Shown: positions 2,693-58,194, counted from the first letter of the stretch. The stretch: DNA of 64,000 bases from Candidatus Saccharimonadota bacterium (GCA_905372785.1 CAJPQG010000002.1:57166-121165), one strand, 5' to 3'. Numbers and translations are program-made. The notes: a model not told the origin generated them from the sequence alone.

Positions 2693-2728
2693 ATGTTTTG
2701 CATAGGCCGCCCTAACCTACACATACAC

Positions 2729-2757: not shown

Positions 2758-2777
2758 TCTGCCATATGCACCTAATA

Positions 2778-3593
2778 TTACTGCGCTAGACCATCATCTT
2801 TCTGTAATCTTGCTGCATGCAATACATTTTCGAATAGTGAGGCGACCGTGAGTGGCCCCACTCCACCCTTCACCGGAGTAATTGCCACATCGTCGCGCTG
2901 CCTCACGCTATCTGCTACATCGCCCACGATACGGCCGTCCTCGGTGGCCGTACCTGCGTCAATAACGACCGCACGCTGGTTTACTAACTCATTCGTTATA
3001 AGCCCGGGTACGCCAGTGGCGGTAATAATAATATCATGCTCTGCTACTGAACTCAGACTATCGCCTTCTTCATAGGTCGTGATATCATAGCCATGCCCTC
3101 TGTACAATGCAGCTAATGGAGCCCCTACCAGACGTCCCTGGCCAATAATAGCAATCTTTTTGCCTGTCAGCGTCACGTTGTATCCCGTTACTAGCCAGTC
3201 AATCGCCTGAGCCGTCGCTGCTATAAACACGCTATCCGCACGCAGACCATCAACATCTTTTTTCGGAGGTATCGCCGCTACTAACTCATCAATATCTACA
3301 GACTCAAACGGCAACTGCACAATAATTCCATGCACCTCGCTGTCCTTAGCTAACTTCTGAAGCTCATCTATCACGGTGCCCTGCGTAGCAACAACTTCAC
3401 GAACGTCCACCGCGATATCATCGCCATAGCGCTGCTTTACCCTTAGGTAGCTTGTATTTACCGGGGACTTACCATCATGTACGATAGCAAGCGTCGGTAT
3501 AATCGCATGCTGCTGCCGCAAGTTTCGTGCCTGGCGTAGCTGGCGAACTTTAATAAAATCTACTAATTCCTGTCCGTTAAGTACTCTTGTCAT
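2778..3593 (-). CDS. folD: Bifunctional methylenetetrahydrofolate dehydrogenase/cyclohydrolase FolD
   Basis: The ORF matches FolD along its full length, with motifs VHGIIVQLP, VDGL, GKKIAIIGQGRLVGAPLA, ITPVKGGVGPLTVA. I chose the internal ATG (MTRVLNGQ) because the longer ORF start at 3623 would leave only 22 nt to the divergent gene. Confidence 0.9.
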   Translation of the reverse strand: MTRVLNGQELVDFIKVRQLRQARNLRQQHAIIPTLAIVHDGKSPVNTSYLRVKQRYGDDIAVDVREVVATQGTVIDELQKLAKDSEVHGIIVQLPFESVDIDELVAAIPPKKDVDGLRADSVFIAATAQAIDWLVTGYNVTLTGKKIAIIGQGRLVGAPLAALYRGHGYDITTYEEGDSLSSVAEHDIIITATGVPGLITNELVNQRAVVIDAGTATEDGRIVGDVADSVRQRDDVAITPVKGGVGPLTVASLFENVLHAARLQKDDGLAQ

Positions 3594-40501: not shown

Positions 40502-41602
40502 TTAGCTAAACAAGCCACCTTTGGCGTCTCTGAATTCCTCCAGTAGTTGCCGCTGCTTTTTATTCAATCGTTTTGGTATCTCTACCGTCAAACGTACCAC
40601 GTGTGCCCCACGTTTATCGCCACGTGGATGTTTCACGCCATAGTTCGCAAGCCGGAAATCGGTGCCACTCTGCGTACCAGCCGGTACGCGCATAGTCACT
40701 TCTCCGTCAATCGTCAACACATCGATCTCTGTTCCCAGCGCCGCATCTACCATAGAAATTTTTTGCTCACTAAAGATTGTGTCGCCATCGCGGGTGAAGC
40801 GTTTATCTGGCTGCACTCGTACGTGAATATACAAATCACCAGGTTCACCACCGGCCAAAGCCTCGCCACGCCCGCTCAATCGAATCACAGCGCCATCTTC
40901 GATACCAGCCGGAATTTTTACAGTCAAAGACTGTCGACCCCGTTGTACGCCCTTGCCGTGGCACACGTGGCATTTCTCTTCTGGTACTTTGCCGCGACCA
41001 TCACAAGTTGGGCACATAATCTGCTGCTGCACCTGGCCAAAGAGTGAATTCATAACCCGCGTCTGCTTACCGCTACCCTGACAGTCTGGGCAGGTGTCTA
41101 GCTTGGTGCCTGGCTCTGCACCATCGCCATGGCAGTGCGGACATGTCTCGTCCACTGTGGCAGCCACTTCCTGCTCGGTGCCAAACACCGACTCTTTAAA
41201 GGAAATCGTTGTCTCTACCTCTAGGTCCTGCCCACGAGTCTGGCGCCCAGCACCTCCAGCTGCACCGCCAAAAAACTGCCCAAAAATATCACTAAAATCA
41301 AACCCAGCACCAGCGCCGCCAGCAAAGCCGCCAAAGCCTTCGAACGGGTTGCCACCATAGCTCTGGCCACCGCCAGCCTGACTACCATCATATCCCGCAT
41401 GTCCAAACTGGTCATATCGGGCTCGTTTCTGCTGGTCTTTCAGCACCTCATAAGCTTCATTAACTTCTTTAAATTTAGCCTCATCACCATCACTTTTGTC
41501 TGGATGGTATTGCACCGCCTTTTTGCGAAATGCCCGTTTTATCTCATCTGCGCTTGCCGTTTTTGGCACGCCTAACACTTCATAATAATCTCGTTTACTC
41601 AT
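40502..41602 (-). CDS. dnaJ: Chaperone DnaJ
   Basis: The protein has a J domain (HPD), a G/F region, and four CxxCxG zinc-finger repeats. Confidence 0.95.
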   Translation of the reverse strand: MSKRDYYEVLGVPKTASADEIKRAFRKKAVQYHPDKSDGDEAKFKEVNEAYEVLKDQQKRARYDQFGHAGYDGSQAGGGQSYGGNPFEGFGGFAGGAGAGFDFSDIFGQFFGGAAGGAGRQTRGQDLEVETTISFKESVFGTEQEVAATVDETCPHCHGDGAEPGTKLDTCPDCQGSGKQTRVMNSLFGQVQQQIMCPTCDGRGKVPEEKCHVCHGKGVQRGRQSLTVKIPAGIEDGAVIRLSGRGEALAGGEPGDLYIHVRVQPDKRFTRDGDTIFSEQKISMVDAALGTEIDVLTIDGEVTMRVPAGTQSGTDFRLANYGVKHPRGDKRGAHVVRLTVEIPKRLNKKQRQLLEEFRDAKGGLFS

Positions 41603-43826: not shown

Positions 43827-44696
43827 CTACGCCACCGGTGGAGTTGGTGCATCAGTAGGAGTAGTAGCTATAGTTTTCTTTAGTTTATGATAATTAATGA
43901 GGGCTCGCACGAACACCACAAGACCAAAGATCATTAGCCCAGTCATGATCGTAAAGGTACCACCATTCTGCTGCTGACTAGCTATCAAAAACGTGATGTA
44001 GGTAATAGCTGCTCCAGCTAGTGGAACCAGTGTAGCTAAGGCAACCATGCGGCGCGCCTTACGCAACTGAATTGGCGAAACCTGCTTTGCAAATGCCCAG
44101 ATAAACATTGCTATCGCGAGAAGCACCGACAAGATAAGAATAATTAAATATGGCAACCCAGCCTCAATAGACTGCTTTTTGTTAGCTTCTTCGGTAGCCT
44201 TATCAAGGTTCTTAATCGCAGCGTTATATTCATCAATGGCAGTATTAAACTGCTTTGGGAACTCTTCACTAGCCTTCTTGCGTGCAGTGACATCACCGCC
44301 CGTTAGCACCGAGATACCATTATCCACAATTTCTCGTAATTTACCGGTTTTAGTCTTAAGCTCATTAGCAGCTTGAGTGTATCCATTTCCAAGTTTTAGC
44401 GAAAACGCATGATCTTCAAGGCTCTTTAGGCTGACTTGTAGTTCGGTTAGTGCTGTAAGTAACTCACTCTGCTGTAAGTCCTGTTTTGTATAGGTTCGTG
44501 TAAACGCTTCAAGGTCTGTGTTTACCTTCCCTATTGCATCAACATCAGACTGATTAACATGCTGCTGTTGCTTACTGCTACTATTATCATTATTATGGCT
44601 GTGACTGTGTGTATGCCGTATTCGAGCATGCGCAGGAGATGACGCAATTGCAACAGCGATAACGGCAATACCTATTATTGCAAAAAATTTCTTCAT
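43827..44696 (-). CDS. Hypothetical protein: signal peptide, His-rich stretch, coiled-coil ectodomain and three C-terminal TM helices
   Basis: The N-terminus reads MKKFFAIIGIAVIAVAIASSPAHA, followed by HTHSHSHNN. The C-terminal helices are hydrophobic. Confidence 0.55.
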   Translation of the reverse strand: MKKFFAIIGIAVIAVAIASSPAHARIRHTHSHSHNNDNSSSKQQQHVNQSDVDAIGKVNTDLEAFTRTYTKQDLQQSELLTALTELQVSLKSLEDHAFSLKLGNGYTQAANELKTKTGKLREIVDNGISVLTGGDVTARKKASEEFPKQFNTAIDEYNAAIKNLDKATEEANKKQSIEAGLPYLIILILSVLLAIAMFIWAFAKQVSPIQLRKARRMVALATLVPLAGAAITYITFLIASQQQNGGTFTIMTGLMIFGLVVFVRALINYHKLKKTIATTPTDAPTPPVA

Positions 44697-44813
44697 GATG
44701 GTTATTATACCATATATTGTGTATGTATTGCATATTTATGTTCATTTATATAATATCAGCGCCCTGTATCATAGAGCGCTGATATTATTAGTTTGGCATT
44801 CTTATGAGAAGAG

Positions 44814-46274
44814 TTACGCTTTGTCGCTTATCACATCACGGTCACGTGGGAATGAAGAGTATAGCAATTCGTTAACCTCAACACGTGAGTGGCCACGGCT
44901 TGCCAGTGACTTACTTGACAGAGACTTATTGACGACAGCAACACCGTCTGTCTTCTCCTGCTGAGTCAGCGCTACAACGCCGTAGTCAACGCGGGTGTTC
45001 ACGATGTATGGCGATACATAGAAGCCGGTTTTAGCACCACGGTAGGTGTTATCTTTCCAGCGTGGATTTTCTGCTCGACAACCAACGAACTGGTTGTTTT
45101 CACCACCTATAATACAGAAGTTTGCGGCATGGTCTGGGTTCTTCTCAGTAGACGAGTCGTTACAACCTGAAGTTTCACCAAGGCAGCTCACAAACTGGTT
45201 GCTACCATACTCAACGATAAACCCATGTCCACCATTTTCTTGAGCAGTACACTCGATGAACATATTCTTGGTTCCCTTAATGCGCCAACCAGCACCATCA
45301 CCAATCGAACCGCCATTCTTTGCTGGATCAATAGCGCCTGAAGATTGCTGACGACGATTGTACCAGCTAGTACACTGGTTGAACTTACACTGGCTAGTGT
45401 ATACCTCAATACCAGCTGAGCCATTACCATTACGGTTCGCACTCGAAACGTCCATACCCCAAAAACGGTTATCAGCTGCGCCACCACTACCTGGCTTACC
45501 AACCAAAAGACCTTGGTTGAGCGCACGGCGGATACGAATGTTGTAGAACTGAATAGCCTGGTCGTCACGGCCTATCACCACAAGACCGCGGTCCATGTCC
45601 CAAATTTCAAGGTTTCGCACACTGTGTACTGCATCAGGGTCTTGGCTTTTAGCACCCTTCCAATCGGTGTTTAATAGCACACCACAAACACCTGGAATAG
45701 GGCTTGCTGCCGCAAAATCACCATTCCCCGTCTTAATAAACATGTCACGCAGCCCAGCACGAGTACAGCTAGTGTCGCTGTTTGGCGTATTGTAAGTACC
45801 AATATGGAACACTCCGGTTGGGTCGTTCGCGTTTCCGCTACCGGTAGCGAACACAACTGTTGAACTACCGTGCCCATAACAAGTCACATGGCCCTTTAGC
45901 TCAATAAATGGGCTACTTACTTTGTACTTACCAGCTGGGAACTCGACCGCACCGCCGCCTCGTTCATGTGCTGTATCAATTGCCTTCTGAATTGCAGAAG
46001 TTGAGTCTTTTTGACCCGTTGGGTCTGCACCAAATGAAGTGATGCTAACGTTTGCATCGCTAGTTGTACTCATCACTTGAGCTTCACCACCACCAAGCTT
46101 TGCACGTAGCTCCGGGCTAAGTTTATTCTCAGAAATAGCATCGTTTCGAATATTGTTTGTGCCGACACTATTCTGCTTCAAAAATCCATTTTCTTCGTGA
46201 GACTGGCGTAAGAAATCATTAAGAACGCGTCCCCATGTCTGATTGTCACCGTTTGGTACTGGTAGTCGTGCCAT
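44814..46274 (-). CDS. Right-handed parallel beta-helix protein (pectate-lyase-superfamily / tailspike-like fold), no signal peptide
   Basis: The motif ITSFGADPTGQKDSTSAIQKAIDTAHERGGGAVEFPAGKYKV is typical of Pectate_lyase_3-type domains. The N-terminus is LPVPNGDNQTWGRVLNDFL. A good RBS (AAGGAAGG) precedes the ATG. Confidence 0.65.
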   Translation of the reverse strand: MARLPVPNGDNQTWGRVLNDFLRQSHEENGFLKQNSVGTNNIRNDAISENKLSPELRAKLGGGEAQVMSTTSDANVSITSFGADPTGQKDSTSAIQKAIDTAHERGGGAVEFPAGKYKVSSPFIELKGHVTCYGHGSSTVVFATGSGNANDPTGVFHIGTYNTPNSDTSCTRAGLRDMFIKTGNGDFAAASPIPGVCGVLLNTDWKGAKSQDPDAVHSVRNLEIWDMDRGLVVIGRDDQAIQFYNIRIRRALNQGLLVGKPGSGGAADNRFWGMDVSSANRNGNGSAGIEVYTSQCKFNQCTSWYNRRQQSSGAIDPAKNGGSIGDGAGWRIKGTKNMFIECTAQENGGHGFIVEYGSNQFVSCLGETSGCNDSSTEKNPDHAANFCIIGGENNQFVGCRAENPRWKDNTYRGAKTGFYVSPYIVNTRVDYGVVALTQQEKTDGVAVVNKSLSSKSLASRGHSRVEVNELLYSSFPRDRDVISDKA

Positions 46275-46335
46275 TATCGTAGATATCCTTCCTTTATTTC
46301 TGCATGTATCAGGTTAGTGAATGATCGATAGCTAA

Positions 46336-46596
46336 TTAGCCGCCGTAAGTGCCACTGCCGTAGGCACTACCAGTAGATTTATTTTGCTCTTCAACTGGTT
46401 GCTTGCTTTTTGCGACTGGCTGAGCGTGAGCTTCTGGCGCCCATAGCTGTTGTGCTGATTTCACAACGGCGCCACCACCCATAACAAGCAATCCACCAAC
46501 ACCGACATGCTTGAAGAATTCCTTCCTATCCATGGGTCTGTCTAAAAACTGCTGTACATTCTGAGGTAGCTTCATATTACTCTCTTTCTGCATCAT
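46336..46596 (-). CDS. Mini-protein consisting almost entirely of a Tat-type signal peptide
   Basis: DRKEFFK (compare the S/T-R-R-x-F-L-K consensus) is followed by the hydrophobic stretch HVGVGGLLVMGGGAVV and an AHA|Q cleavage-like site. That leaves only ~28 mature residues. Confidence 0.5.
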   Translation of the reverse strand: MMQKESNMKLPQNVQQFLDRPMDRKEFFKHVGVGGLLVMGGGAVVKSAQQLWAPEAHAQPVAKSKQPVEEQNKSTGSAYGSGTYGG

Positions 46597-46667
46597 ATAA
46601 ATCTTGGTTTGCTTTTTCTATTATACCTTGGGTAATATAGACCCTCAAGGCTGGAGGGGGTAAATAG

Positions 46668-47921
46668 CTAAAATCCATCCAAGCTACGACCGCGTCGGCC
46701 AGGGGCCGGCTGCAAATCATGAACGCTGTTTAAGTTACCACGATTTGATCTATTGCTTGGTGCAACTACACCTGATATGGTGCCCGTTTGTGGCTTTTTG
46801 TGGCTTCCTACGGCAGGGTTGTGCATAGTCATTGTTTTATGGCGCTTCTGCGCGCCACTAACAACCCGTTTTTGCACCGTATGAGCCGCTGACATATATC
46901 CTCGATTAGCCCGCTTTTTCATTTTTCCAACACCCCCCACTAGCATATCCTGGGTAGGTTTTGCGGCACGCTTAACCAGTTTCTGCACCCGTACACCGTT
47001 ACTTTGTCGAGGCTTAGCCACGCCCCCAACAGGACTCTTGCTTACTAACGACGCCTGCGGGCGTGGTCGAGTCACCACAGCACGCGATTGTGCAATAGCG
47101 GTAATCTCGCTCATGTCTTCATCTCTAGTATCACGCGCTTCCTGTCGAGCACCACGATACACCGGCTGAGCACGACCAGCAAGCCGAGCCCGACGATTAA
47201 CCCAATACACCCACACAACACCCACTTGATACATCAAAATCATTGGCAATGCGAGCAATACCTGGTTGGTCGGGTCTGCTGTTGGCGACACGACTGCAGC
47301 AATCACAAAAGCCCCTACTAACACCACTTTTTGCCCCTTCATGAGCCCGCCAGGTGGAAATGGTCGCACAAAATTTATCATCAACATAAATAGCGGCACC
47401 TGGAATAATAGCGCACCGATGAGCAAATAGGCCATCACGAAGCTAATATATGACTCCACCGTCAGCATCGGATTAATGTGGTCTAGGTTCATACCTGTCA
47501 AAAATTGCAGCGCTGCTGGCAACGTGACAAAATAGCCAAACAGCACCCCGGCAATCGCCAATAGCACCGAGGCTGTAGTATAACCTACCACTCGCTTATA
47601 GGAAGCTTTACCAACCGCCGGCTGAATAAAACGGTACAAATGGTAAATAATAGCCGGAAATGCACCAATAAGCCCTACATATAAACAAGTTTGCACCACA
47701 AAAGCAAACGCCCCGCCCGGCGTAAGATATACCAGCTCGTGGGCTTTACCAAGTGGGCGCAATAAAATACGAACGATATCGTTAAAAAACGGGTACGCAA
47801 GCGCGCCGGCAAGCAAAAAAAATCCCACCACGACCATTAAGCGCCACTGCAGTTCGCGGGCATGGTCTAAAAAGGTGGGTAACTGATTATTTTGTGCTCT
47901 TCTTGGTTGAGTCATCCTCAT
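46668..47921 (-). CDS. tatC: Twin-arginine translocase subunit TatC with a ~175-aa basic C-terminal extension
   Basis: The N-terminal FLDHARELQWRL motif and six TM helices fill the first ~240 aa. The remainder is an Arg/Lys-rich low-complexity tail. Confidence 0.85.
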   Translation of the reverse strand: MRMTQPRRAQNNQLPTFLDHARELQWRLMVVVGFFLLAGALAYPFFNDIVRILLRPLGKAHELVYLTPGGAFAFVVQTCLYVGLIGAFPAIIYHLYRFIQPAVGKASYKRVVGYTTASVLLAIAGVLFGYFVTLPAALQFLTGMNLDHINPMLTVESYISFVMAYLLIGALLFQVPLFMLMINFVRPFPPGGLMKGQKVVLVGAFVIAAVVSPTADPTNQVLLALPMILMYQVGVVWVYWVNRRARLAGRAQPVYRGARQEARDTRDEDMSEITAIAQSRAVVTRPRPQASLVSKSPVGGVAKPRQSNGVRVQKLVKRAAKPTQDMLVGGVGKMKKRANRGYMSAAHTVQKRVVSGAQKRHKTMTMHNPAVGSHKKPQTGTISGVVAPSNRSNRGNLNSVHDLQPAPGRRGRSLDGF

Positions 47922-48527: not shown

Positions 48528-49037
48528 TTATTTACGTGTCACCTTTACCATGGCGTCTCGGATTGGTAGCCCGTTAAGACGATATCCTGTCTGTAGCTCG
48601 GCTGCAATCACTTCAGTGTCACCTTCTGCATCCTCGTCCATTTGCACTGCTTGGTGCACCGAAGGGTCAAATGGCGTTCCTGCACTAGCAGCAATTTTTT
48701 CCAGCCCAAGCTCTTTGGTTATTTTATCGAGCTGCTTTGTTAGCCCAGTGATGCCTTTTACCCAGGTGTGTCCTGCAATGTCATCTGGCACATGTGTTAT
48801 GGCGCGCTCAACAGTATCTAGCACCGGCAGTAGCGCCTTGGTAGCCTTTTGCTCACCAGCCTGACGAGCCGCAGTCTTCTCTAGTTCCACACGTTTGCGA
48901 TAGTTCTCAAAATCTGCCCGCGTACGCTGCAAATCAGCCGTTAATTCTGCCACCTTGGCATGAAGCGTATCAACTTCTACCGATGGCGACGCGTTATCAT
49001 CCGCTGGAGGGGTTACGGGGTTTTGTTTTTTACTCAT
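48528..49037 (-). CDS. grpE: Nucleotide exchange factor GrpE
   Basis: The RTRADFENYRKR motif is present, and the gene overlaps the hrcA stop by 4 nt. Confidence 0.92.
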   Translation of the reverse strand: MSKKQNPVTPPADDNASPSVEVDTLHAKVAELTADLQRTRADFENYRKRVELEKTAARQAGEQKATKALLPVLDTVERAITHVPDDIAGHTWVKGITGLTKQLDKITKELGLEKIAASAGTPFDPSVHQAVQMDEDAEGDTEVIAAELQTGYRLNGLPIRDAMVKVTRK

Positions 49038-49762
49038 GAACTATGCTCCTCTTTCAATACTTGTTCTAATAATTGGCCGGTGTGATGTACTAGCCGCATA
49101 ACCTTTGCATAACTTTGGCGAGTTGGCCCTAGCACACCAATGTAACTATGATTACTATACGGAGATCGGAACCGACTCACAATCAGGCTTGAACCACTCA
49201 TGCTGCCAATCGGATTTTCCGACCCAATATAGACATTTAACGGCTCATTTAATGATGCTTCACGCAGCCAGGGCTCAATATTATCAAGCAGCCGCGCCAC
49301 AGCTCGCACATGTTCACCCTGGTCAAATTCTGGATGTGAAAACAAATTACCGATGCCATTCATATATAATTCATCACCAATTGTCGCGAGGCCAAGATTT
49401 TGCGTAAGCTCTACCAGGCTATCCACTGCAGCCCGAATGATACGATCGGCGCGATCGCCACGAGCATGCACTCGTGCCTCAATAGCCCGCACGCTACGCT
49501 CACTAATTCGCATCAAATCATGGTCTTTGCTCTGCGTAAGGTAATTAACGTACATGCGGTAACCCTGGTCTGTTGGGATACGGCCGGCACTAGTGTGCGG
49601 CTGCGAAATAAGCCCTTCTTTCTCAAGCCAGGCCATTTCACTACGAATCGTAGCACTAGAAACGCCAAACAGCTTCGCCAGTGTGACGCTTCCCACTGGA
49701 GAGGCTACTTCAGCATATTGCTCTATAATAGCAAACAAAATCGCTCGTCGTCGCTCTGTCAT
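49034..49762 (-). CDS. hrcA: Heat-inducible repressor HrcA (short, ~242 aa)
   Basis: The N-terminal winged helix reads RRRAILFAIIEQYAEVASPVGS..SSATIRSEMAWLEKEGLISQPHTSAGRIPT..GYR. I placed the start at MTERRR. Confidence 0.85.
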   Translation of the reverse strand: MTERRRAILFAIIEQYAEVASPVGSVTLAKLFGVSSATIRSEMAWLEKEGLISQPHTSAGRIPTDQGYRMYVNYLTQSKDHDLMRISERSVRAIEARVHARGDRADRIIRAAVDSLVELTQNLGLATIGDELYMNGIGNLFSHPEFDQGEHVRAVARLLDNIEPWLREASLNEPLNVYIGSENPIGSMSGSSLIVSRFRSPYSNHSYIGVLGPTRQSYAKVMRLVHHTGQLLEQVLKEEHSS

Positions 49763-49782
49763 GGGGCAATTGTAGCACACTT

Positions 49783-49809
49783 TTAGCACTCATGCAATGT
49801 GAGTGCTAA
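49783..49809. promoter_or_regulatory. Perfect consensus CIRCE operator upstream of hrcA-grpE
   Basis: The element is TTAGCACTC-N9-GAGTGCTAA, 21 nt upstream of the hrcA ATG. Confidence 0.9.
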
Positions 49810-49831
49810 CGCCTATGTTCCGCTAGCTCCC

Positions 49832-50548
49832 CTACCCTCGGTGGCGCTGAATCTCTACCAAAATATCACGCGCAGCTAGTCGTGCCTCGTCGTCCTTACG
49901 GGTAAAGAGGTCTGGCTTTGTCGCAATTTTACCAACGACATGTGTGGCCAATTCTAGGTCATCATTAACCACAAAGTGGTAATACGGCACCATCAAGGCG
50001 CGTTCCAGTTCGGTAATCGCGCTGGCCCGTCGCTTTGGCCATTCTGCCAAAAAATCTTCCTCGCTAGCGTATCGCTGCTTTAGCCGCTGCTGCCACGTTA
50101 CAAAGTCTGGCGGCAGCAGAAAAATCGCAACGGTGTGCGGAGCAATTTCCTTATACTCTGCTACTCCTTGCACATCAATGTCCGTGATAGCCACTTTGCC
50201 CAGCTGCTGAGCCTTGGTAAGCTCTGCCACACTAGTGCCATACACCGTACCATGGACATATTTGGCCTCAATAAATGCCTGTTGGTGCAGCATGTCTGTC
50301 ACCTGACTATCGGTAACAAAGTGATAATCCACCCCATCCACCTCTGGCTGGCCATTATTCACCCGAGGCGCGCGAGTAGTGTGTGATACGATATCATAAA
50401 ATCCACCCTGAGCAAGTAATCGTTTTTTAATAGTATCCTTACCAGCACCAGAAATGCCCACTAATAGCACAATCTGCGCCTCTTGCACTAATGTGGTCGT
50501 CGCTTGGCTTGGCGAATACGTATCAATCAATGTTCGTAGCTGGTTCAT
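49832..50548 (-). CDS. gmk: Guanylate kinase-like P-loop kinase
   Basis: Motifs present are GISGAGKDT, SHTTRAPR..GQPEVDGVDYHFV, YGT and ITDIDVQG. Confidence 0.75.
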   Translation of the reverse strand: MNQLRTLIDTYSPSQATTTLVQEAQIVLLVGISGAGKDTIKKRLLAQGGFYDIVSHTTRAPRVNNGQPEVDGVDYHFVTDSQVTDMLHQQAFIEAKYVHGTVYGTSVAELTKAQQLGKVAITDIDVQGVAEYKEIAPHTVAIFLLPPDFVTWQQRLKQRYASEEDFLAEWPKRRASAITELERALMVPYYHFVVNDDLELATHVVGKIATKPDLFTRKDDEARLAARDILVEIQRHRG

Positions 50549-50560
50549 CTGTCTCCTGTC

Positions 50561-51520
50561 TTAATCCCGTTTTAACATCACCGTAAACGCTTCACTCGGG
50601 ATATCCACCTTACCAAAACGTTTCATGCGCTGCTTGCCCTTGGCTTGTTTGGCTAGTAACTTCTTGCGGCGCGATACGTCGCCACCGTACAACTTGGCCG
50701 TTACATCTTTGCGGTAGGCACTAATGTCCTCACGAGCAATAAACTTACCACCGATTGCAGCTTGCAGGCTCACCTGGAAATTCTGGCGTGGCACCACTTC
50801 TTTCAGCTTCTTGACCACATCGCGCCCCAAAGACTGCGCCTCGCTGCGATGACACATGATACTCAGCGCATCAACCATTTCCCCGGCCACATAAAAATCC
50901 ACCCGCACTAAATCTTCCGGCTGATAGCCCTTTAGCTCATAATTAAACGAGCCATAACCACTGGTAACGCTCTTTAGCTGGTCGTAAAAGTCAGTCAATA
51001 AATTGGCAAGCGGCGCTGTAAACGATATCAAAGCGCGCTCGTCGATATAGCTAATATTATTCTGTAGCCCGCGCTTAGCAACGATCAACTGAATAACCGC
51101 CCCAATATATTCTTGCGGCACCACAATCTCACCATTGATCCACGGCTCCCGAATTTGGGTAATTTTTGTAACAGGCGGCAAGTCTGCAGCAGATTTAATG
51201 TCCTGCTCACTGCCGTCCGTCATGGTTACTTTATAGTCGGTGCTTGGGTTCGTCACCACAAGATCAAGATTATACTCACGCTCCAGCCGCTCTCGGATAA
51301 TATCCATGTGCAGTAGGCCCAAAAAGCCAATTCGCACACCAAAACCAAGCACTGGTGAATTCTCTGGCTCAAACTGTAAAGCGCTATCGCTTAAACTAAG
51401 CTTTTCAATCGCGTCTTTCAGGTCTTGATAGTCTTCGTTGCTGACCGGAAAAAACCCAGCGTATACAAATGGCTGAATCTCTTTATACCCTGGCAGCGGC
51501 TCAAGTGGTAATTGTGACAT
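50561..51520 (-). CDS. lepA: C-terminal half of translation factor EF4/LepA (domains III-V and LepA_C) as a stand-alone ORF
   Basis: It starts MSQLPLEPLPGYKEIQPFVYAGFFPV.. and continues through LGFGVRIGFLGLLHMDIIRERLEREY and the C-terminal KLLAKQAKGKQRMK. Confidence 0.85.
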   Translation of the reverse strand: MSQLPLEPLPGYKEIQPFVYAGFFPVSNEDYQDLKDAIEKLSLSDSALQFEPENSPVLGFGVRIGFLGLLHMDIIRERLEREYNLDLVVTNPSTDYKVTMTDGSEQDIKSAADLPPVTKITQIREPWINGEIVVPQEYIGAVIQLIVAKRGLQNNISYIDERALISFTAPLANLLTDFYDQLKSVTSGYGSFNYELKGYQPEDLVRVDFYVAGEMVDALSIMCHRSEAQSLGRDVVKKLKEVVPRQNFQVSLQAAIGGKFIAREDISAYRKDVTAKLYGGDVSRRKKLLAKQAKGKQRMKRFGKVDIPSEAFTVMLKRD

Positions 51521-51682
51521 ATAGCTATACTATAGCGTGTTTTTGTGGGGGTGTACAGGCCGTGGGGTGGCAATCATTTGCGTAGCGCTCTATACTAACA
51601 AGCAGGTGTCCAGAACTTCTGACGTAACCAAAGACCGAACATACCTACCCTATCCATTTACTAGTTTATTTATGTTTGCACA

Positions 51683-52033
51683 ATGAACTCAGATACACTA
51701 ACACCACTATTCAATCAGCGTGACAAGCTTGTACTGGCACGTGAGATTATAGATTTATACTACGATGATCGATCTAACACACAAACCGTGGAGTCACTCA
51801 GTCGCATCTGCTTTACCCTTGCTCGACTATTTGAAACTACAAATGATATACGCACCATATGGGATGACTTATTCGATTTTTTTGACGAAAAATATATGGT
51901 CCTTGCAAGCGGTCAGCAGTGGGATGAGACGCGAGAAGCTCAAATCGATACGTTATTTGAACGATTGCAGCGTGATATATCACATCAGCAGCGCCGCATC
52001 TCTCAGTGCCGCGCCAACGCCACTACACCCTAA
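51683..52033 (+). CDS. Hypothetical 116-aa acidic helical protein (island cargo)
   Basis: The call rests on the ORF alone, with no recognisable motif. Confidence 0.4.
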   Translation: MNSDTLTPLFNQRDKLVLAREIIDLYYDDRSNTQTVESLSRICFTLARLFETTNDIRTIWDDLFDFFDEKYMVLASGQQWDETREAQIDTLFERLQRDISHQQRRISQCRANATTP

Positions 52034-52259
52034 CTCTGCTAGTGGCAATGTATTTTATACATCAACCTTTTGTGGTTTTAGGTAGTTTCTTGTATAATTA
52101 AGTTACTAGCTCACAAAATGCGTGGCGCACAGTTTTTGTCGCAGGCCTGCATCCCGTGGGCTTGGCTGCGTGTACTTTGAGAATATGGTTTTCTTAGTTA
52201 GAGAGAAAGCGTATTTTTCCATTTTGTGACGAGAGATAGAAAGGTTGTGAGTGATCACA

Positions 52260-53294
52260 ATGGGTAAGCGTAAAGAAGAAGTTTCTATTACGAACTTTGA
52301 TGTACTAGATAACATCAACAAACACCGTGATAGCAGCATCCCTCTTTTCTTAACGGCGTTTCGAGATAATAGGTCTCGCATGGGGACCATCGTGAATACG
52401 TCAGCACTCTACAGTGAGAAAGCCAAACTATGGTTTGTTCATCAGCAGTTTACTGAAGTATACCTGAAGTTTATCGAAGCGCATCGTCGCTACTGCAATA
52501 GCCCGTCAGACAATACAGATCCGGTTTTGAAAAAGTTTCTGTCGAAACTTAAGGAGCTTGCCGATCTGGAGTTCAACCAGCAGGTATGGCGATATGCTTG
52601 TTTCGATACTATATACAAGCAAACGCTCTATCTGCTGAATGGTCTCATCGGCGATAACAGCCGTCGAACACTTACTCCTGAAGAGATGGAAAACTACATC
52701 ATGACAGCCAAGGATATCTTGGCATCCGTCTCTAAACCGTTTTCAGAAGACGATATCCAAAAGGCTCTACAGCCAGTCGGCATCTATGGTGACACCACTA
52801 TCAATGTCATTGATGTCTGTCATGACCGAGATATTTGCTGCAAGTTCATCCTGGACAATAATCCTCCAAAAGACTGGAAGGAGCAATACCAGGATAACAA
52901 GGTAGTACAGGTTATTGGTGAAGCCTATGAACGTGGCCGTCCGACTAGCGAGTATATTGCCTGCGCACGAGCAGCACGGGAGCTTATGCTGTGGATCCAT
53001 GGTGTCGGATGCGAATACACCGTGTTCACTCCTCCCGCAGATATTCAGTATATCGACCCTCACGAAATCGGTGACTACGAATTAAGTGTCTCAATGGAAC
53101 TGGCGGATGGCGAACACGAAGTTTACTTCACGTTTAACGACATAGGATACCCGCGCAACAGCGAGGGTGAGTACACTATCGTTGCAGCAGCGCTTAACGT
53201 TCTATTAGCACTAGACAAGGGGTTCTACCAGAAGACACTCGAAAAGGGCCATTACCCTGGGTGCAACCCTCTTGAACTCATCTGTAACCAATAA
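52260..53294 (+). CDS. Hypothetical 344-aa protein (island cargo)
   Basis: It is a clean ORF with an AGAAAGG-type RBS upstream of the ATG at 52260, followed by a strong terminator. No motif is recognisable by eye. Confidence 0.55.
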   Translation: MGKRKEEVSITNFDVLDNINKHRDSSIPLFLTAFRDNRSRMGTIVNTSALYSEKAKLWFVHQQFTEVYLKFIEAHRRYCNSPSDNTDPVLKKFLSKLKELADLEFNQQVWRYACFDTIYKQTLYLLNGLIGDNSRRTLTPEEMENYIMTAKDILASVSKPFSEDDIQKALQPVGIYGDTTINVIDVCHDRDICCKFILDNNPPKDWKEQYQDNKVVQVIGEAYERGRPTSEYIACARAARELMLWIHGVGCEYTVFTPPADIQYIDPHEIGDYELSVSMELADGEHEVYFTFNDIGYPRNSEGEYTIVAAALNVLLALDKGFYQKTLEKGHYPGCNPLELICNQ

Positions 53295-53312
53295 CCATTA
53301 GTAACACAGCCA

Positions 53313-53353
53313 CCCCCCATTCACATTCATCTATGTGGATGGGGGCTTTTTAC
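53313..53353 (+). terminator. Rho-independent terminator after the 344-aa island gene
   Basis: The hairpin is ccccccattcaca..tgtggatggggg, followed by CTTTTTAC. Confidence 0.6.
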
Positions 53354-53416
53354 TTTTGTTATCAATCAGGCTGGCATGATATACTCTGCAGCAAGATCTA
53401 GAAACATAACACCACA

Positions 53417-53450
53417 GAAAAAGCACCTCATACGGAGGTGCTTTTATTTT
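53417..53450. terminator. Bidirectional hairpin terminator after the 89-aa island gene
   Basis: The sequence is AAAAA-gcacctc-atacg-gaggtgc-TTTTATTTT. Confidence 0.6.
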
Positions 53451-53463
53451 GCTGGCTCACCAG

Positions 53464-53733
53464 CTAGTTGACTGGCTTGTAGGTGGCGTGAAAAATATCC
53501 CGTTTAATGGTCCACACTTCGTTGCTGTTGCCGATAATCATATAATCCCCTTCTTCGAATTCGAAGCGACGGCCTTCCAAGGTGTCAATCGTTTTATTAT
53601 CAAAATCAAGACGCTCTTCATGCTCAAACAAATGCTTATTTTCTGGGATTAGCTCGATTGCATATGCCGGAATTGGCAACTTTACATACTGCGGAACACC
53701 AAGTTCTTTACAAATTTCTTTCGTGAGCTTCAT
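53464..53733 (-). CDS. Hypothetical 89-aa protein, possibly PGDYG-family (phage-associated small protein), translationally coupled to the LepA N-half
   Basis: Its ATG lies 3 nt after the LepA N-half stop codon. The C-terminal EGDYMIIGNSNEVWTIKRDIFHATYKPV resembles the PGDYG family signature as I recall it. Confidence 0.5.
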   Translation of the reverse strand: MKLTKEICKELGVPQYVKLPIPAYAIELIPENKHLFEHEERLDFDNKTIDTLEGRRFEFEEGDYMIIGNSNEVWTIKRDIFHATYKPVN

Positions 53734-53736
53734 GCG

Positions 53737-54657
53737 CTATCCTTTCTTTATATTCTCTGTTAACGTGACGGTATCCCCCACGCGGGCATCGCGCGTCGTG
53801 CGGAGGTTGGTGACAATATAGCCAATTTCCCCAGTCTCTAGCGCAGGATCGGGCTGCATACCGGGGCTTAAGTGGCCCACCTCGAGCGCCAGGCCGTGCG
53901 CCCCAGTAGCCATCATCGTAATATCGGCCCCTTTTGGAATATTGCCATCCACAACTCGCACGTACAGGATGACGCCGCGGTAATCATCATAATAACTATC
54001 AAAAATCAAAGCTCGCGTCGGGACTATAGCAACTCTGCCATCTAGCTGAGCGGCCTGCTCTGCTAGTGGTGAAACTGGCGCCGGAATACGCTCCACAATA
54101 GCCTGAAGCACCTGCGGTACATTATGGCCAGTTTTAGCTGAAATATGAATAATCTCATCTTCGCTGCACCCCAGCAGATTCATCACCTGCAGGCTAACGC
54201 GTGGCACATCTGCCGCTGGTAAATCCACCTTGTTAAGCACTGGAATAATTACTAAATCCTGCTCCATGGCAAGATATACATTAGCGAGCGTTTGCGCCTG
54301 GATACCCTGGCTGGCGTCCACCACAAGCACCGCACCCTCACAGGCCTGCAGGCTGCGCGATACTTCATAGCTAAAGTCCACGTGCCCTGGTGTATCAATG
54401 AGGTTAAGATCGTACATCCCCACCTCGGCCAGGCTGGCAGCAGTAGGTTCAGGCACGTAATTATACTGCATCCGCACCGGCGCAAGCTTAATTGTAATAC
54501 CCTTTTCACGCTCTAACTCCATACTGTCTAGCAGCTGCTGCTTCATATCACGCGTGGTAACTGTTCCGGTTAGCTCCATCATGCGGTCAGCCAAGGTGCT
54601 TTTACCGTGGTCGATATGGGCAATAATACAGAAATTACGAATGTGGTTTTTCATCAT
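53737..54657 (-). CDS. lepA: N-terminal half of EF4/LepA (GTPase domain + domain II) as a stand-alone ORF
   Basis: GTPase motifs are [26 protein letters not shown] and NKVDLP. The ORF ends ..[16 protein letters not shown]. Confidence 0.9.
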
Positions 54658-56310
54658 TTATCGCTTATTATACCATGATTTAAACAGGATGCCGCGCACC
54701 TTATCGATCACTGGATCTGCTTCACTGAGGCGCAGCCACTTTGAAATACCAACATATGCCGCAAAACTACCAAGGCTAATCACCATGAACTTTGGCAGTG
54801 CCGCAAAGAAACTATTATCAGCGTTCTGTAGTGGCAACAGTATCACTAATACATAGGCAACTACGCCCATAATGGCCGTAGCAAGCAACATGCGCAATGT
54901 GGCCCGAATGAACCGAAAATCAAATAGATTACCGATGCGCCGGTTGATTAGCACAAAGAGTAACACCACTTCCACCGCGGCAACCGTACTCTGAGCCACA
55001 GCCAGCCCATAAGCTCCCATGCGCAACCCCATGCCAAGCCAAATTGCCAAAATAACGTTCAGCGCAATAGCTACAATTGAGGTATATAGCGGTGTTTTTG
55101 TATCCTGCTGCGCGTAAAAGGCACGTGAGGCAATGTGGTACACCGAGCGGAAAAAGACAGCAATAGCCAGCATGCCTAAAATACCCGCCATCAGCGCATC
55201 ACCACCATTACGAATAAAGTGTACTAGGTACCCACGAGTAAAGAAAATTAGCATCGAAACCGGCAAAGCCAGCCAAATAATCACCCGAATCACGCTGGCT
55301 AGCTCTCGGCGGAAATCGTCAGTCTTCCCTTTACCTAGCGACTCCGTCATGCTTGGAAAGGCCGCACTAGAAATCGCCACACCAATAAGGTTAATTGGGA
55401 ATAAATGTAGCGTTAGCGCCTGCTGATAAGCTCGAATTGTACCATCGGCCATACGAGAAGCTAGGTTGATTTCTACCAAAGTCACCACGTAGTCCATACC
55501 CTGGTCGATTGAGCGCGGTGGCAACAGCTTCAGCACTTGCAAAAAGCCCTTGTTGCGCCAATAAATCTTAAAGTCGTAGTCCATACCAAGACCAATCAGA
55601 CCGGCCGAACTAACCAGCAGCTGCAGCACGGCGCCGAGCACCACACCAAGCGCGACACCCATGATACCGCCGCCGAAGATCTCCCAGCCAAACAGATTAA
55701 TACCATTTGTGAACCACAAAATACCGACGATAATACCCAAGTTGTACAAAATCGGCGCTAAAGCGTAGAATGTAAACCGCCCCACAGCCTGCTGAATGCT
55801 GGCAATCACTGTTGCAATCGCAAACAAAAATGGGTTCACCGCAATCACACGCATCATACTAATTGCCAGCCCAGTACCTGATTCTCCTAAGCCGGGTGCG
55901 ATAATATAACGAACAATTGGCTCAGCAAAGATGATAATTAACACGCTAGCAATTAAGGTAATCAGCGCCATAAAGTTAATCATGCTAGTAGAAATTTGCC
56001 AGGCAGATTTTTTATTACGGCGCGCTAGCCGTTCGTTAAACACAGGAATAAAAGTAACGCTTAAGGCACCAGACACCAGGATAAAGTACATGAAATCGGG
56101 CACCGTAAAGGCTGCTGTGTATGCATCCAGCCCAACAGGGTAGCCAGCTAACCCCATGTCTTTATTTGGCATATATGCACTGTTTAGCAGGCGATCTCGG
56201 AAAAATCCCATTAGGCTAGAAATAATCGTTGAACTAGCCAGTAGAATAGCGGCTACTTTGATGCTGAGCCGCTTATTCGCAAAGGATACAACGCGTTTCA
56301 TTCGATTCAT
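54658..56310 (-). CDS. murJ: Lipid II flippase MurJ
   Basis: It is a 14-TM MOP-family protein. The N-terminal LMGFFRDRLLNSAY and the overall profile are typical of MurJ. Confidence 0.85.
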   Translation of the reverse strand: MNRMKRVVSFANKRLSIKVAAILLASSTIISSLMGFFRDRLLNSAYMPNKDMGLAGYPVGLDAYTAAFTVPDFMYFILVSGALSVTFIPVFNERLARRNKKSAWQISTSMINFMALITLIASVLIIIFAEPIVRYIIAPGLGESGTGLAISMMRVIAVNPFLFAIATVIASIQQAVGRFTFYALAPILYNLGIIVGILWFTNGINLFGWEIFGGGIMGVALGVVLGAVLQLLVSSAGLIGLGMDYDFKIYWRNKGFLQVLKLLPPRSIDQGMDYVVTLVEINLASRMADGTIRAYQQALTLHLFPINLIGVAISSAAFPSMTESLGKGKTDDFRRELASVIRVIIWLALPVSMLIFFTRGYLVHFIRNGGDALMAGILGMLAIAVFFRSVYHIASRAFYAQQDTKTPLYTSIVAIALNVILAIWLGMGLRMGAYGLAVAQSTVAAVEVVLLFVLINRRIGNLFDFRFIRATLRMLLATAIMGVVAYVLVILLPLQNADNSFFAALPKFMVISLGSFAAYVGISKWLRLSEADPVIDKVRGILFKSWYNKR

Positions 56311-56331
56311 GGCGAGGTTCCTCTAATTCAC

Positions 56332-58194
56332 TTACTGGTGCAAGCGTGCTGTCTTTGGCAATGTTGCGCCATCCAACACTTCATTTACACGTGTCTCTTC
56401 AATGGTTTCTTCTTCAAGCAGCACCTTAGCCAAAGCATCAAGCTTGTCTCGGTTTGCCTGCAATACTTCTTCAGCGCGGCGAGCCGCTTCTTGAATCAGA
56501 CCCTTGACTTCTTGGTCGATCTGCTCAGCAGTAGCGTCACTGTATGGCCGCTCGTGGGTAATTTTATCAAATACCATACCGCCATTATCTTCATGGAAAA
56601 CTTGATCACGCAGCTTGCTGCCCATTCCCTGCTCAATCACCATATCACGGGCAATTTCAGTTGCCTTGCGCAGGTCGCTACCTGCTCCGGTGGTAATACC
56701 ATCATCACCATAAATCAACTTTTCTGCAATGCGGCCGCCCATAGCTCGCGCCAGGATATCTTTAAACTCATACACGCTGGTATAACTTTTATCTTCTGGT
56801 GGCAAGAACCAGGTTACACCACCGGTGCCACCACGCGGGATAATCGTCACCTTGTGCACTGGATCAGAATCTGGAAGCACATGCCCAACAATAGCGTGAC
56901 CAGCCTCGTGGTACGCAGTCAGTTGCTTCTCTTTTTCATTCATCACCTTCGACTTGCGCTCTGGACCAATAGCAACCTTTTCAAACGCTTCGGTTAGGTC
57001 GTTATTGCTAATTTTCTTAGCGCTACGGCGCGCTGCGATAATAGCTGCCTCATTGGCAATATTTGCTAGATCTGCCCCGCTACTACCAGCAGTTTTGGCA
57101 GCTAATTTATCGATATTTACATCATCTTCCACTGGCTTCTTCTTGAAGTGCAGCTTTAAAATTGCCTCGCGGTCCTTGCGCTCTGGCAACATAATATTTG
57201 TGCGGCGATCGAAGCGGCCAGGACGCAACAGTGCCGGGTCAAGCACATCGGCACGGTTAGTTGCAGCAAGCACAATCACGTTCGTACCAGTTTCAAAACC
57301 ATCCATTTCTACCAAAATCTGGTTCAATGTTTGCTCACGCTCATCGTGGCCACCGCCCATACCGCTACCACGCTTACGGCCAACGGCATCGATTTCGTCG
57401 ATAAAGATAATTGCAGGAGCATTTTTCTTGGCCTTAGCGAACAAGTCACGTACGCGACTCGCACCAACACCGACAAACATCTCAACAAATTCAGAACCGC
57501 TAATGCTAAAGAATGGCACACCAGCCTCACCAGCAACAGCGCGAGCCATCATTGTTTTACCAGTACCAGGACTACCGACAAGTAGCACACCTTTTGGAAT
57601 CTTGGCACCAAGCGCCTCGTACTTCTTTGGGTGTTTTAGGAAATCTACCACCTCTTCAAGGTCTTGCTTGGCATTTTCATTACCAGCAATGTCACTAAAC
57701 AAGACTTTTTTCTTATCGAGGCCATAAAGCTTAGCCTTGCTCTTGCCAAAGCCCATCGCCTGGTTGTTCTGCCCCTGCGCCTGGCGCATCATAAACATAA
57801 AGAAGGCTACAATTAAGATAACAGGCACGATTACCATCGCCAGATTCCAGATATTATCGCCTGTGTTACTTACCTGGTTAACGGTTACCTTGGTAGTGTT
57901 GTGATTCAGCCCCTGCTCAAAAATACTACTACCCGGTTCTTTATATGAGCGCTCGGTTGGCTTTTGCTGATCTTTTTTAGTAATTAATAGCTCATTACCC
58001 TGAATGGTAATCTCCTGTACTTCGCCCTTGTTAGCCTGCGCAATGACATCAGAAAAACTAACTTGCTTTAAGCCACCCTGCTGGCGGGTAAGCGCAAAAA
58101 TACCGATACCGAGCCCGATAATAATGACCCAAAAAATAATATTACGAACTAAGTTCCCTTTTTTCTGTGGTTGCGGTTTTCGTGCCTTTGCCAT
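56332..58194 (-). CDS. ftsH: ATP-dependent zinc metalloprotease FtsH
   Basis: Motifs present are [17 protein letters not shown], the SRH region, and the HEAGH zinc site. Confidence 0.97.

Follow-up and report, generated by a model that had tools for sequence, protein, structure and literature searches.

Organization of the lepA Locus

In the window, i.e., the whole stretch of 64,000 nucleotides analyzed (Candidatus Saccharimonadota bacterium, GCA_905372785.1 CAJPQG010000002.1:57166-121165), EF4 (LepA) is encoded by two open reading frames separated by a spacer. The genome is that of an oral member of the Saccharibacteria (TM7). The gene order is murJ, lepA-N, spacer, and lepA-C; 12 nt after lepA-C there is a guanylate-kinase-like gene, followed by hrcA and grpE. 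The following features were annotated:

54667..54675 (-), extended -10-like box TGGTATAAT, 9 nt upstream of the lepA-N ATG and inside the murJ 3' end, read from the sequence (candidate promoter element)
53737..54657 (-), lepA-N, EF4 G domain and domain II, 306 aa (Pfam, TIGR01393, PDB 3cb4)
53464..53733 (-), first cargo gene, 89 aa, with its ATG 3 nt past the lepA-N stop
53419..53445 (no strand assigned), hairpin between A and T runs, putative bidirectional intrinsic terminator (terminator scan and sequence)
53314..53345 (+), terminator-like hairpin after the 347-aa gene, 13 pairs and then CTTTTT (terminator scan)
52247..53305 (+), strain-variable cassette with an orphan 347-aa ORF at 52251/52260..53294 (blastn breakpoints)
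51683..52033 (+), cargo gene, 116 aa, divergent from lepA-C and conserved in the sister species L007
51529..51557 (-), promoter-like site of lepA-C: TGTACA, 17-nt spacer, TATAGT (consensus match)
50561..51520 (-), lepA-C, EF4 domains III and V and the LepA C-terminal domain, 319 aa, start MSQLPLEPLPGY (Pfam, TIGR01393, PDB 3cb4)

The Pfam domains GTP_EFTU (E 2.7e-53) and GTP_EFTU_D2 were found in lepA-N, and EFG_III, EFG_C (E 3.2e-21), and LepA_C (PF06421, E 7.8e-45) in lepA-C, whose first residues are MSQLPLEPLPGYKEIQPFVYAGFFPV. The TIGR01393 model (lepA, 595 positions) matched lepA-N at positions 2-278 (E 2.3e-117) and lepA-C at positions 282-594 (E 7.5e-132), the match extending over the full length of each half; in E. 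coli LepA (3cb4), the corresponding residues are 2-279 and 283-592. Because the ranges do not overlap in either alignment, the two ORFs are exact, non-overlapping complements of one EF4 and not overlapping or paralogous fragments. The break falls in the domain II/III linker, as the original prediction had proposed, with about three model positions unaccounted for between the halves. The G1, G3, and G4 motifs can be read intact in lepA-N. The two halves thus have the five domains, the G motifs, and the LepA-specific C-terminal domain in common with one-piece EF4/LepA proteins (TIGR01393; PDB 3cb4, 2ywe, and 4w2e), and all of these are well conserved. Unlike in those proteins, there are two genes with separate starts, and each half scores below the curated TIGR01393 cut-off of 533.9 bits (392.8 for lepA-N and 440.7 for lepA-C). 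Instead of the single polypeptide of ~600 aa expected of this equivalog, two ORFs lie 2,216 bp apart.

Gene Content of the Spacer

The spacer (51521..53736, 2,216 bp) contains three ORFs, distributed over both strands, and has a G+C content of 0.40-0.44 versus ~0.48-0.54 in the halves. The claimed 3-nt gap between lepA-N and the first cargo gene is present: the stop codon TAG occupies 53737-53739, the ATG of the 89-aa gene follows 3 nt on, and its Shine-Dalgarno-like AAAGGA sits within the final lepA-N codons. Relative to L007, this gene shows 11 synonymous and 1 non-synonymous differences (dN/dS 0.02), and its 5' half is deleted in genomes L001 and L002. The product matches phrog_419 (E 2.8e-9) and belongs to a family otherwise from Firmicutes conjugative or integrative elements, where homologues adjoin RepA_N, SSB, DNA methylase, CHAP, AAA_10, and integrase genes. 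An AF2 model (pLDDT 89) predicts a small beta-barrel protein, with no significant fold match in the PDB.

The blastn breakpoints of the cassette are 53306/53305 and 52247/52246. In L007, L001, and L002 (94%-identical), ~320 nt with a 98-aa ORF occupy exactly its place, and the swap boundary therefore lies just past a shared ribosome-binding site. The 347-aa ORF has one homologue only (94% identity) among 5.8 billion proteins; it gave no Pfam, PHROG, NCBIfam, PDB, phage, or viral match, and one weak PADLOC match to 'HEase' (E 0.0056) is below any useful threshold. The 116-aa gene differs from that of L007 by 13.5 synonymous and 9.5 non-synonymous changes (dN/dS 0.18), and its product had no match in the Pfam, PHROG, PADLOC, and NCBIfam searches. 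No Pfam nuclease domain was found in the cargo of the window.

Promoter and Terminator Signals

Promoters and terminators were called exclusively as consensus matches. The murJ stop codon TAA is at 54658-54660, and the box-to-ATG geometry of lepA-N recurs at many genes of the window. Upstream of lepA-C, 8 nt separate the end of the -10 box from the ATG and a Shine-Dalgarno sequence is absent, which corresponds to a leaderless-type geometry. Of the 56 species with a split lepA, 42 have a -10-like hexamer at a distance of 5-14 nt upstream of the C-half ATG, with the TG extension (TGnTATAAT) in 39. The hairpin at 53419..53445 looks like the end of a transcription unit formed by lepA-N and the 89-aa gene.

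Distribution of the Split among Saccharibacteria

The 80 nearest Saccharibacteria species representatives were taken for comparison. The lepA gene was split at the same linker in 56 of them (both halves in the retrieved locus) and one-piece in 8. The locus, order, and orientation of the two halves were the same in 56/56 species where both were retrieved, and the gap ranged from 2 to 8,230 nt (median 1.8 kb). The shortest gaps were found in L067 (2 nt), L058 (116 nt), and L071 (158 nt); in the minimal form of L067, the lepA-N stop and the lepA-C start overlap as ATGA. The best 120 lepA-N homologue clusters (78-99% identity) all comprised proteins of 306-367 aa with only the GTP_EFTU and D2 domains. 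Uninterrupted alleles, for which a search of relatives had been suggested, exist in eight species, with none found in close relatives of the window (80 species, best 120 protein clusters). In single-gene NJ trees of LepA and FtsH, the one-piece lineages interleave with short-gap split lineages, so the split may or may not have a single origin.

The cultured strain Southlakia epibionticum ML1, whose genome is closed, shares this split, with the order FtsH, MurJ, SEML1_0727 (N-half), SEML1_0726, and SEML1_0725 (C-half). The Tn-seq table of this strain contains one LepA annotation only. Both SEML1_0727 and SEML1_0725 were classified as non-essential ('NE'); from T0 to T2, normalized reads fell mildly and to a similar degree for the two halves (0.67x and 0.70x) and rose 1.37x for the gene between them. 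A literature search retrieved no paper describing a split lepA or the fission of another EF-G-family GTPase, and to our knowledge no such fission has been reported.

Selection on the Halves and Their Tails

Between the window and L007, dN/dS was 0.061 for lepA-N and 0.012 for lepA-C at a dS of ~0.22, and values of 0.00-0.17 were obtained for both halves in every clade pair with unsaturated dS. The N-half evolved faster than the C-half in most pairs. An insertional pseudogene would be expected to show dN/dS near 1 and frameshifts, whereas here dN/dS is low and each half matches the model from end to end; both halves are thus under strong purifying selection. Since lepA is dispensable in culture in S. 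epibionticum (Tn-seq) and in E. coli, the function of the halves is argued from sequence conservation.

Across species, 4-30 residues are added at the cut to the N-half tail and 3-12 to the C-half head; in the window, there are 4 extra residues after domain II and 3 before the conserved C-half start. The pattern GDTVT-L-x-x-Y-[FMIV] fits 67 of 76 N-half tails and none of the one-piece linkers; like the -10 box before the C-half, it is a shared derived feature of the split alleles. The lineage of the window has the tail TENIKKG-stop instead of the consensus KKYFE-stop; should the consensus tail serve for docking, this lineage has lost or replaced it. The TENIKKG tail contains the ribosome-binding site of the 89-aa gene and looks rewritten by the arrival of the cargo. 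The earlier idea that the insert supplied a stop codon and an ATG to the halves therefore may hold locally for the lepA-N end, while it is not supported in general.

The Gap as a Recombination Hotspot

The gaps of the compared species contain 114 ORF families, with 283 ORFs on the lepA strand and 40 on the opposite one. The families include NUDIX, MazG-like, DUF218, GrpB, Peptidase_S51, SDR, DUF6994, and T5orf172, the last (GIY-YIG superfamily) being the gene next to the N-half in seven species. The 3 window ORFs and 30 family representatives scanned included no integrase or transposase, such as an integrase-mediated genomic island would be expected to carry. Fragments of the lepA halves remain as scars inside the gaps of nine species; in L018, the 5' part of the C-half is joined in frame to the N-half tail at an IVTN microhomology. 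The cassette replacement between 94%-identical genomes (the window versus L007, L001, and L002) completes the picture of a hotspot, with the same flanks, differing content in close relatives, and scars.

Horizontal-transfer hotspots are known between conserved core genes, as is homology-facilitated illegitimate recombination in bacteria that are naturally transformable. The lepA gap resembles such hotspots in its conserved flanks, variable content, independence of an integrase, junction scars, and competent host, Saccharibacteria being naturally competent and able to recombine homologous DNA (PMC10633639). It differs from the usual core-gene hotspots in that one protein supplies both anchors, as its two halves, and also the scars, which are fragments of these halves.

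Origin and Possible Function of the Two-Piece EF4

The data are best explained by a heterodimeric EF4 that arose through an old, maintained gene fission, to which we assign a probability of about 75%; the physical assembly of the halves is the inferred part of this reading. The fission at the II/III linker would have taken place in the ancestor of a large Saccharibacteria clade, or a fissioned allele would have spread through that clade, which takes in oral Nanosynbacter-type and some environmental lineages. The lepA-N half (G domain and domain II) would be expressed from a promoter within the murJ end, and lepA-C (domains III and V and the LepA C-terminal domain) from its own promoter just upstream of the ATG. 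EF4 activity would most likely come from a non-covalent association of the two polypeptides, either in solution or on the ribosome. Because the non-coding joint between the halves is tolerant of insertions and bordered by two very conserved sequences, it has become a hotspot at which recombination adds, exchanges, and removes accessory genes. The 2.2-kb content of the window (the 89-aa mobile-element-type gene, the 347-aa orphan, and the 116-aa gene) would be the current cargo of this lineage.

The original prediction had left two options, a functional two-piece EF4 and a very recent insertion into a dispensable gene, and the former is favored by intact halves, strong purifying selection, and presence in at least 56 species. 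A 2.2-kb element lately inserted in a dispensable lepA, with the halves as young undecayed pseudogene fragments, is contradicted by the data and very improbable. Non-essentiality of lepA (S. epibionticum Tn-seq and E. coli), the partly very recent, strain-specific cargo, and the lower G+C content of the spacer agree with it, but the same fission is seen with unrelated or hardly any cargo in at least 56 species. Moreover, dN/dS is 0.01-0.06 over a dS of 0.22 in the lineage and comparably low across the clade, the C-half is preceded by a conserved promoter-like box, and no uninterrupted allele was found in close relatives (80 species, best 120 protein clusters). The cargo alone is recent, and not the split. 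An assembly or binning artefact, with the halves not adjacent in the real chromosome, has a next to negligible probability even for a window that probably comes from a metagenome-assembled genome: the order N-half/89-aa/344-aa/116-aa/C-half is complete in one independent metagenome assembly (L087), incomplete contigs from four assemblies of other samples (L088-L091) are consistent with it, and lepA is split likewise in L007, in dozens of species sampled by many different studies, and in a cultured strain with a closed genome. Rejoining of the halves by a split intein, a group I/II intron, trans-splicing, or ribosomal bypass would suit a clean break at the linker and nothing more, and is scarcely credible. 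The tails and heads add only a few residues without a Hint domain, and a search of 49000..56500 gave no Rfam intron match at a threshold as loose as E<=1, the former in line with the initial view that the spacer is not an intein. The interval between the halves contains terminators, genes on the opposite strand, and a separate promoter, and gaps extend from 2 nt (L067) to >8 kb.

Two further alternatives concern the fate of the products and the cause of the fission. Both genes may be functional while their products no longer reassemble, yielding, e.g., a stand-alone ribosome-binding GTPase and a separate III/V/CTD factor; we consider this unlikely. The halves have separate promoters and a terminator between them (consensus matches), the N-half outpaces the C-half in most pairs, and gap length and content vary freely, so that co-expression is not enforced. 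Nevertheless, the locus, order, and orientation are constant in all 56 species with both halves, all EF4-specific domains are kept with no new ones, the Tn-seq read trajectories of the halves are alike, and these domains form one body in one-piece EF4 structures (PDB). It is quite unlikely that lepA was split when a free-standing homing endonuclease gene, or a comparable mobile gene, entered the linker and gave rise to the present cargo. Most cargo genes encode ordinary enzymes, minimal-gap alleles carry zero genes, and the cargo of the window has no nuclease domain; the points in its favor are the T5orf172 gene next to the N-half in seven species, the 'HEase' match of the 347-aa ORF, itself below any useful threshold, and the precedent of mobE in phage Aeh1 nrdA (PMC3045599).

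In that phage, the pair NrdA-a/NrdA-b is split by the mobE homing endonuclease into 'genes in pieces', and the tails at the cut are essential for assembly (Crona et al. 2011, PMC3045599). The Saccharibacteria lepA is similar in that a conserved enzyme is cut into two retained genes, here of inferred function, with short new tails at the cut. It differs in the cellular host, in the age and clade-wide occurrence of the split, in a spacer that is a variable multi-gene region and not one element, with no endonuclease identified in the window, and in the conjectural role of the tails in assembly. Split genes of Nanoarchaeum equitans and the Dph1/2 split of DPANN (PMC6143161) are likewise fissions of conserved single-copy genes in ultra-small host-dependent organisms that disturb marker-gene sets. 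The lepA halves are syntenic with a cargo island between them, whereas the halves of split genes in reduced genomes such as that of N. equitans are usually dispersed.

A more speculative extension of the heterodimeric reading, possible but not probable in our estimate, is that the N-half tail L-x-x-Y-[FMIV] and a C-half head x-I-T-V-Q dock the EF4 halves, that the separate promoters set their ratio, and that the spacer builds an operon. If true, this would be a natural heterodimeric translational GTPase in which the G-domain and the tRNA/PTC-reaching modules are regulated independently, and the spacer would place nucleotide-housecleaning genes (NUDIX, MazG-like, etc.) under the lepA-N promoter.

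Significance

EF4 is near-universal and among the most conserved bacterial proteins. TIGR01393 is one of the bac120 markers; since each half falls under the curated lepA threshold, lepA in these organisms will be overlooked or wrongly scored by annotation pipelines and marker-gene tools. In these very small genomes, accessory genes turn over reproducibly at this locus, which is therefore of use in strain typing and a candidate for a neutral insertion site. The role of EF4 is still debated. A clade with a long-lived two-polypeptide EF4, cut into a I-II block and a III-V-CTD block, would offer a natural domain dissection of this factor, and it occurs in organisms that are now transformable and amenable to Tn-seq (PMC10633639).

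Structure of the Split lepA Gene

The lepA (EF4) gene is divided into two ORFs, and the interval was composed of the following features:

53737..54657 (-), N-half: 306 aa; Pfam GTP_EFTU and GTP_EFTU_D2
51521..53736, spacer: 2,216 bp; three ORFs, one of 89 aa in the lepA orientation and two (347 and 116 aa) on the opposite strand
50561..51520 (-), C-half: 319 aa, N-terminus MSQLPLEPLPGYKEIQPFVYAGFFPV; Pfam EFG_III, EFG_C, and LepA_C

The N- and C-halves covered positions 2-278 and 282-594 of the NCBIfam lepA equivalog TIGR01393 (595 positions) and residues 2-279 and 283-592 of E. coli LepA (3cb4), respectively. These alignments indicate that the ORFs are exact complements without overlap, cut at the domain II/III linker. 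Thus, the original prediction of a lepA split at this linker into two intact ORFs was borne out by Pfam, TIGR01393, and 3cb4, as was its exclusion of an intein, since the 4 and 3 extra residues at the cut are far too few. The 89-aa ORF starts 3 nt past the N-half stop. The Rfam scan of 49000..56500 (E<=1) detected no intron; its single sub-threshold match, AsrC at 54581..54644 (+), antisense to the lepA-N start (score 24 bits, gathering threshold 111; E 4e-4), is almost certainly due to chance. The exact-sequence look-up of the N-half gave no match. Compared with Aquifex LepA, the N-half carries two insertions (residues about 66-74 and 198-209), located within the G domain and where it joins domain II; N-half length among species ranged from about 272 to 361 aligned residues, indicating lineage-specific insertions within the G-domain half.

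Distribution and Conservation of the Split

The window belongs to an oral member of Candidatus Saccharibacteria (TM7). The closest species representative, JABCOR020000011.1 (L007, a sister species), shares 98% and 99% identity with the N- and C-halves, respectively. The arrangement recurs in an independent assembly, L087, with the full order N-half, 89 aa, 344 aa, 116 aa, C-half, gmk-like, hrcA, and grpE, and four further contigs (L088-L091), truncated and obtained from other samples, agree with it. Mis-assembly is therefore excluded, and the adjacency of the halves, about which the original prediction had been cautious, was upheld. The best 120 clusters of N-half homologues (78-99% identity) all consist of 306-367 aa and contain the first two domains only, and the C-half of relatives is preceded by quite different genes, including NUDIX, DUF218, Peptidase_S51, and GrpB.

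The extent of the split was assessed within Saccharibacteria, using one genome for each of 80 species and locating both halves by tblastn; the 50%-identity representative library contains many fragments.

State of lepA in 80 species
Split at this linker, with the two halves inside the retrieved stretch: 56
N-half with its stop at the matching site, C-half past the retrieved stretch: 15
One-piece lepA (most distant, largely environmental, 72-76% identity): 8
Contig end too early to assign the state: 1

Such recurrence at one linker contradicts a very recent insertion as the cause of the split. Gap lengths in the 56 split species span 2 to 8,230 nt, with a median of 1.8 kb. The locus L067 has its N-half stop overlapping the C-half start in ATGA, and the gaps of L058 (116 nt) and L071 (158 nt) are gene-free. 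The look-up of one candidate, P0124, gave no match. One species has, about 3.7 kb 3' of the intact C-half, a diverged second copy of its final 108 codons (L041:10385-10708, about 80% nucleotide identity).

Comparison of the window with L007 (Nei-Gojobori, dS about 0.22) gave dN/dS values of 0.061 (N-half) and 0.012 (C-half), and the remaining pairs with unsaturated dS gave values from 0.00 to 0.17 by the same method. These low values are incompatible with the halves being pseudogene fragments. The lepA fission is old and conserved, with both genes under selection, and of the two readings proposed originally, a functional two-piece EF4 is favoured by this selection and by the clade-wide split over an insertion into a dispensable gene.

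The cultured Southlakia epibionticum ML1 carries the same lepA split. Its closed genome shows the gene order FtsH, MviN/MurJ, SEML1_0727 ('GTP-binding protein', 918 nt; the N-half), SEML1_0726 (hypothetical, 687 nt), and SEML1_0725 (the C-half), and 'LepA' is a single entry in the gene table (Wang et al. 2023 Table S1, PMC10633639). Both halves and the gene between them were called non-essential, and murJ and ftsH essential or growth-defective (PMC10633639). From T0 to T2, normalised reads went from 5009 to 3341 for the N-half and from 2895 to 2020 for the C-half, and rose from 2571 to 3535 for the gene between them (PMC10633639); the parallel fall of both halves is suggestive only. The text of that paper makes no mention of LepA or a split, and a literature search found no paper joining lepA with Saccharibacteria.

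Tails and Expression Signals at the Cut

The N-half tails matched GDTVT-L-x-x-Y-[FMIV] in 67 of 76 cases, followed by 1-7 residues (e.g., LKKYFE, LGRYFN, and LKKYFTKETK before the stop), and the motif was absent from all 8 one-piece linkers (e.g., TLSKNPASEPLPGY). Being common to the split alleles, this tail motif speaks for a fission that happened once, with the allele then spreading. Single-gene NJ trees of LepA and FtsH interleave the one-piece lineages with short-gap split lineages and do not separate one origin from several. The tail of the window's lineage, TENIKKG before the stop, is off consensus and includes the 89-aa gene's RBS; the arrival of that gene probably rewrote the tail, or this lineage may have split independently. 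The sequence upstream of a Streptococcus homologue of that gene bears no resemblance to the window's N-half tail, which lends no support to import of the tail along with the gene. A C-half head and promoter of the window type were also found in L016, a locus from another clade.

A -10-like hexamer lies 5-14 nt 5' of the C-half ATG in 42 of the 56 split species, 39 of these hexamers having the TG extension (TGnTATAAT). An SD-like motif precedes this ATG in only six, all without the -10-like box; several short-gap environmental alleles have SD-like GGAGG or AGGAGG at this position. In the window, the C-half has a promoter-like TGTACA-17-TATAGT ending 8 nt from the ATG, and the N-half has TGGTATAAT 9 nt 5' of its ATG, within the end of murJ. 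Transcription is predicted to start about 7 nt past the TATAAT at 54667 for the N-half and past the TATAGT at 51529 for the C-half. Extended -10-like boxes (TGnTATAAT or a near variant) end 6-13 nt before the start codon of about a dozen of the 51 window genes (e.g., 23798, 26989..29349, 40502..41602, 43827..44696, 24250..25305, and 54657), most without a Shine-Dalgarno motif, which suggests frequent leaderless or near-leaderless mRNAs in this genome. Given this geometry, each lepA half resembles an ordinary, independent gene. Downstream of the 89-aa gene, a hairpin terminator was predicted at 53419..53445.

The Spacer as a Recombination Hotspot

The spacer is hypervariable and shaped by recombination. 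A catalogue of 77 spacers (59 complete and 18 open-ended) from the 80 species representatives, other fetched loci, and the window comprised 341 ORFs in 114 families, of which 72 were singletons. In the species representatives, 283 ORFs share the orientation of lepA and 40 run against it. The families occur in modular combinations differing by species. The recognisable cargo consists of ordinary enzymes, namely three NUDIX families, MazG/dUTPase-like, DUF218, DUF6994, and T5orf172, along with Peptidase_S51, GrpB, SDR, nitroreductase, NTP-transferase, methyltransferase, a SWEET-like half-transporter, a PolyA_pol (poly(A)-polymerase/CCA-adding type)-Schlafen fusion, and a transketolase fragment. 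Of the 33 spacer proteins scanned, none was an integrase or transposase.

Through the locus, the window and L007 are about 94.5% identical. The 347-aa gene segment (52247..53305) is replaced by about 320 nt with a 98-aa ORF in L007 (11351-11669) and in the related loci L001 and L002. The boundary lies directly 3' of a GAAAGG RBS common to both versions (window 52034..52246 side), so sister strains use one and the same upstream region to express two unrelated ORFs. The suggestion of a recent insertion thus stands for the cargo, and not for the split itself. The segment 53589..53742 is missing from L001 and L002. Fragments of lepA halves were detected inside the spacers of nine species:

L018:13981-14286
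L060:17895-18029
L055:18823-18957
L076:7499-7594 and 8398-8466
L059:11800-11868
L031, L034, L050, and L056

The L018 fragment, a 5' piece of the C-half, is joined in frame to an N-half tail at an IVTN microhomology (junction after ...LDLIVTN). The junction falls precisely where L047-type cargo meets an L003-type cargo array, and the fragment is the fossil left by a crossover, unequal or illegitimate, that concatenated two cargo arrays. Natural competence has been documented for Saccharibacteria (PMC10633639), and together with the strain-level swaps and scars it fits a recombination model of cargo turnover. Cargo would be exchanged and accreted via recombination anchored in the conserved lepA halves, the other cargo end being joined through illegitimate or microhomology events. 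Downstream of grpE, the alignment with L007 breaks for about 280 nt at 46779..47061, beyond which identity falls from about 94% to 81% (44002..46778); 44002..47061 may be another recombination import or variable segment.

Cargo Genes of the Window

The 89-aa gene differs from its L007 counterpart by 11 synonymous and 1 non-synonymous changes, indicating that it is real. Members of its family lie at:

Window 53464..53733 (-)
L093:6001-6282
L095:3978-4244

The family shows 60-70% identity to members in conjugative/integrative elements of Firmicutes (including Streptococcus), next to RepA_N, SSB, DNA methylase, CHAP, AAA_10, and integrase genes, which points to gene flow between mobile elements of oral Firmicutes and Saccharibacteria. 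The protein is predicted to be a small beta-barrel (pLDDT 89.1). The Foldseek search of this model against PDB gave no significant match, the best one, SPO1 Tad2 (E 0.17, TM 0.34), being a chance small-barrel match. The 116-aa gene (51683..52033, +) is conserved (dN/dS 0.18). The 347-aa gene (52251..53294, +) is an orphan: a search of 5.8 billion proteins gave a single homologue. Its product had no match in Pfam, PHROGs, NCBIfam, or the exact-sequence look-up, and no useful match in PDB sequences (best E 0.29), phage genomes, or viral contigs; the AlphaFold2 single-sequence model was unusable (pLDDT 37.6).

Function and Significance

We infer that EF4 is restored by non-covalent association of the two polypeptides. 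Factors of the EF-G family are built as two blocks, domains I-II and domains III-V, in mutual contact. A docking role was shown for the tails of the phage Aeh1 NrdA, which is split by mobE (PMC3045599); by analogy, the conserved N-half tail may help docking here. The locus adds a case to a known phenomenon, in which a gene splits and keeps its function, here combined with a hotspot between conserved flanks and affecting an unusually conserved translation factor in tractable ultra-small bacteria. Since each half scores under the curated lepA (TIGR01393) cut-off, annotation and marker-gene completeness estimates will be disturbed.
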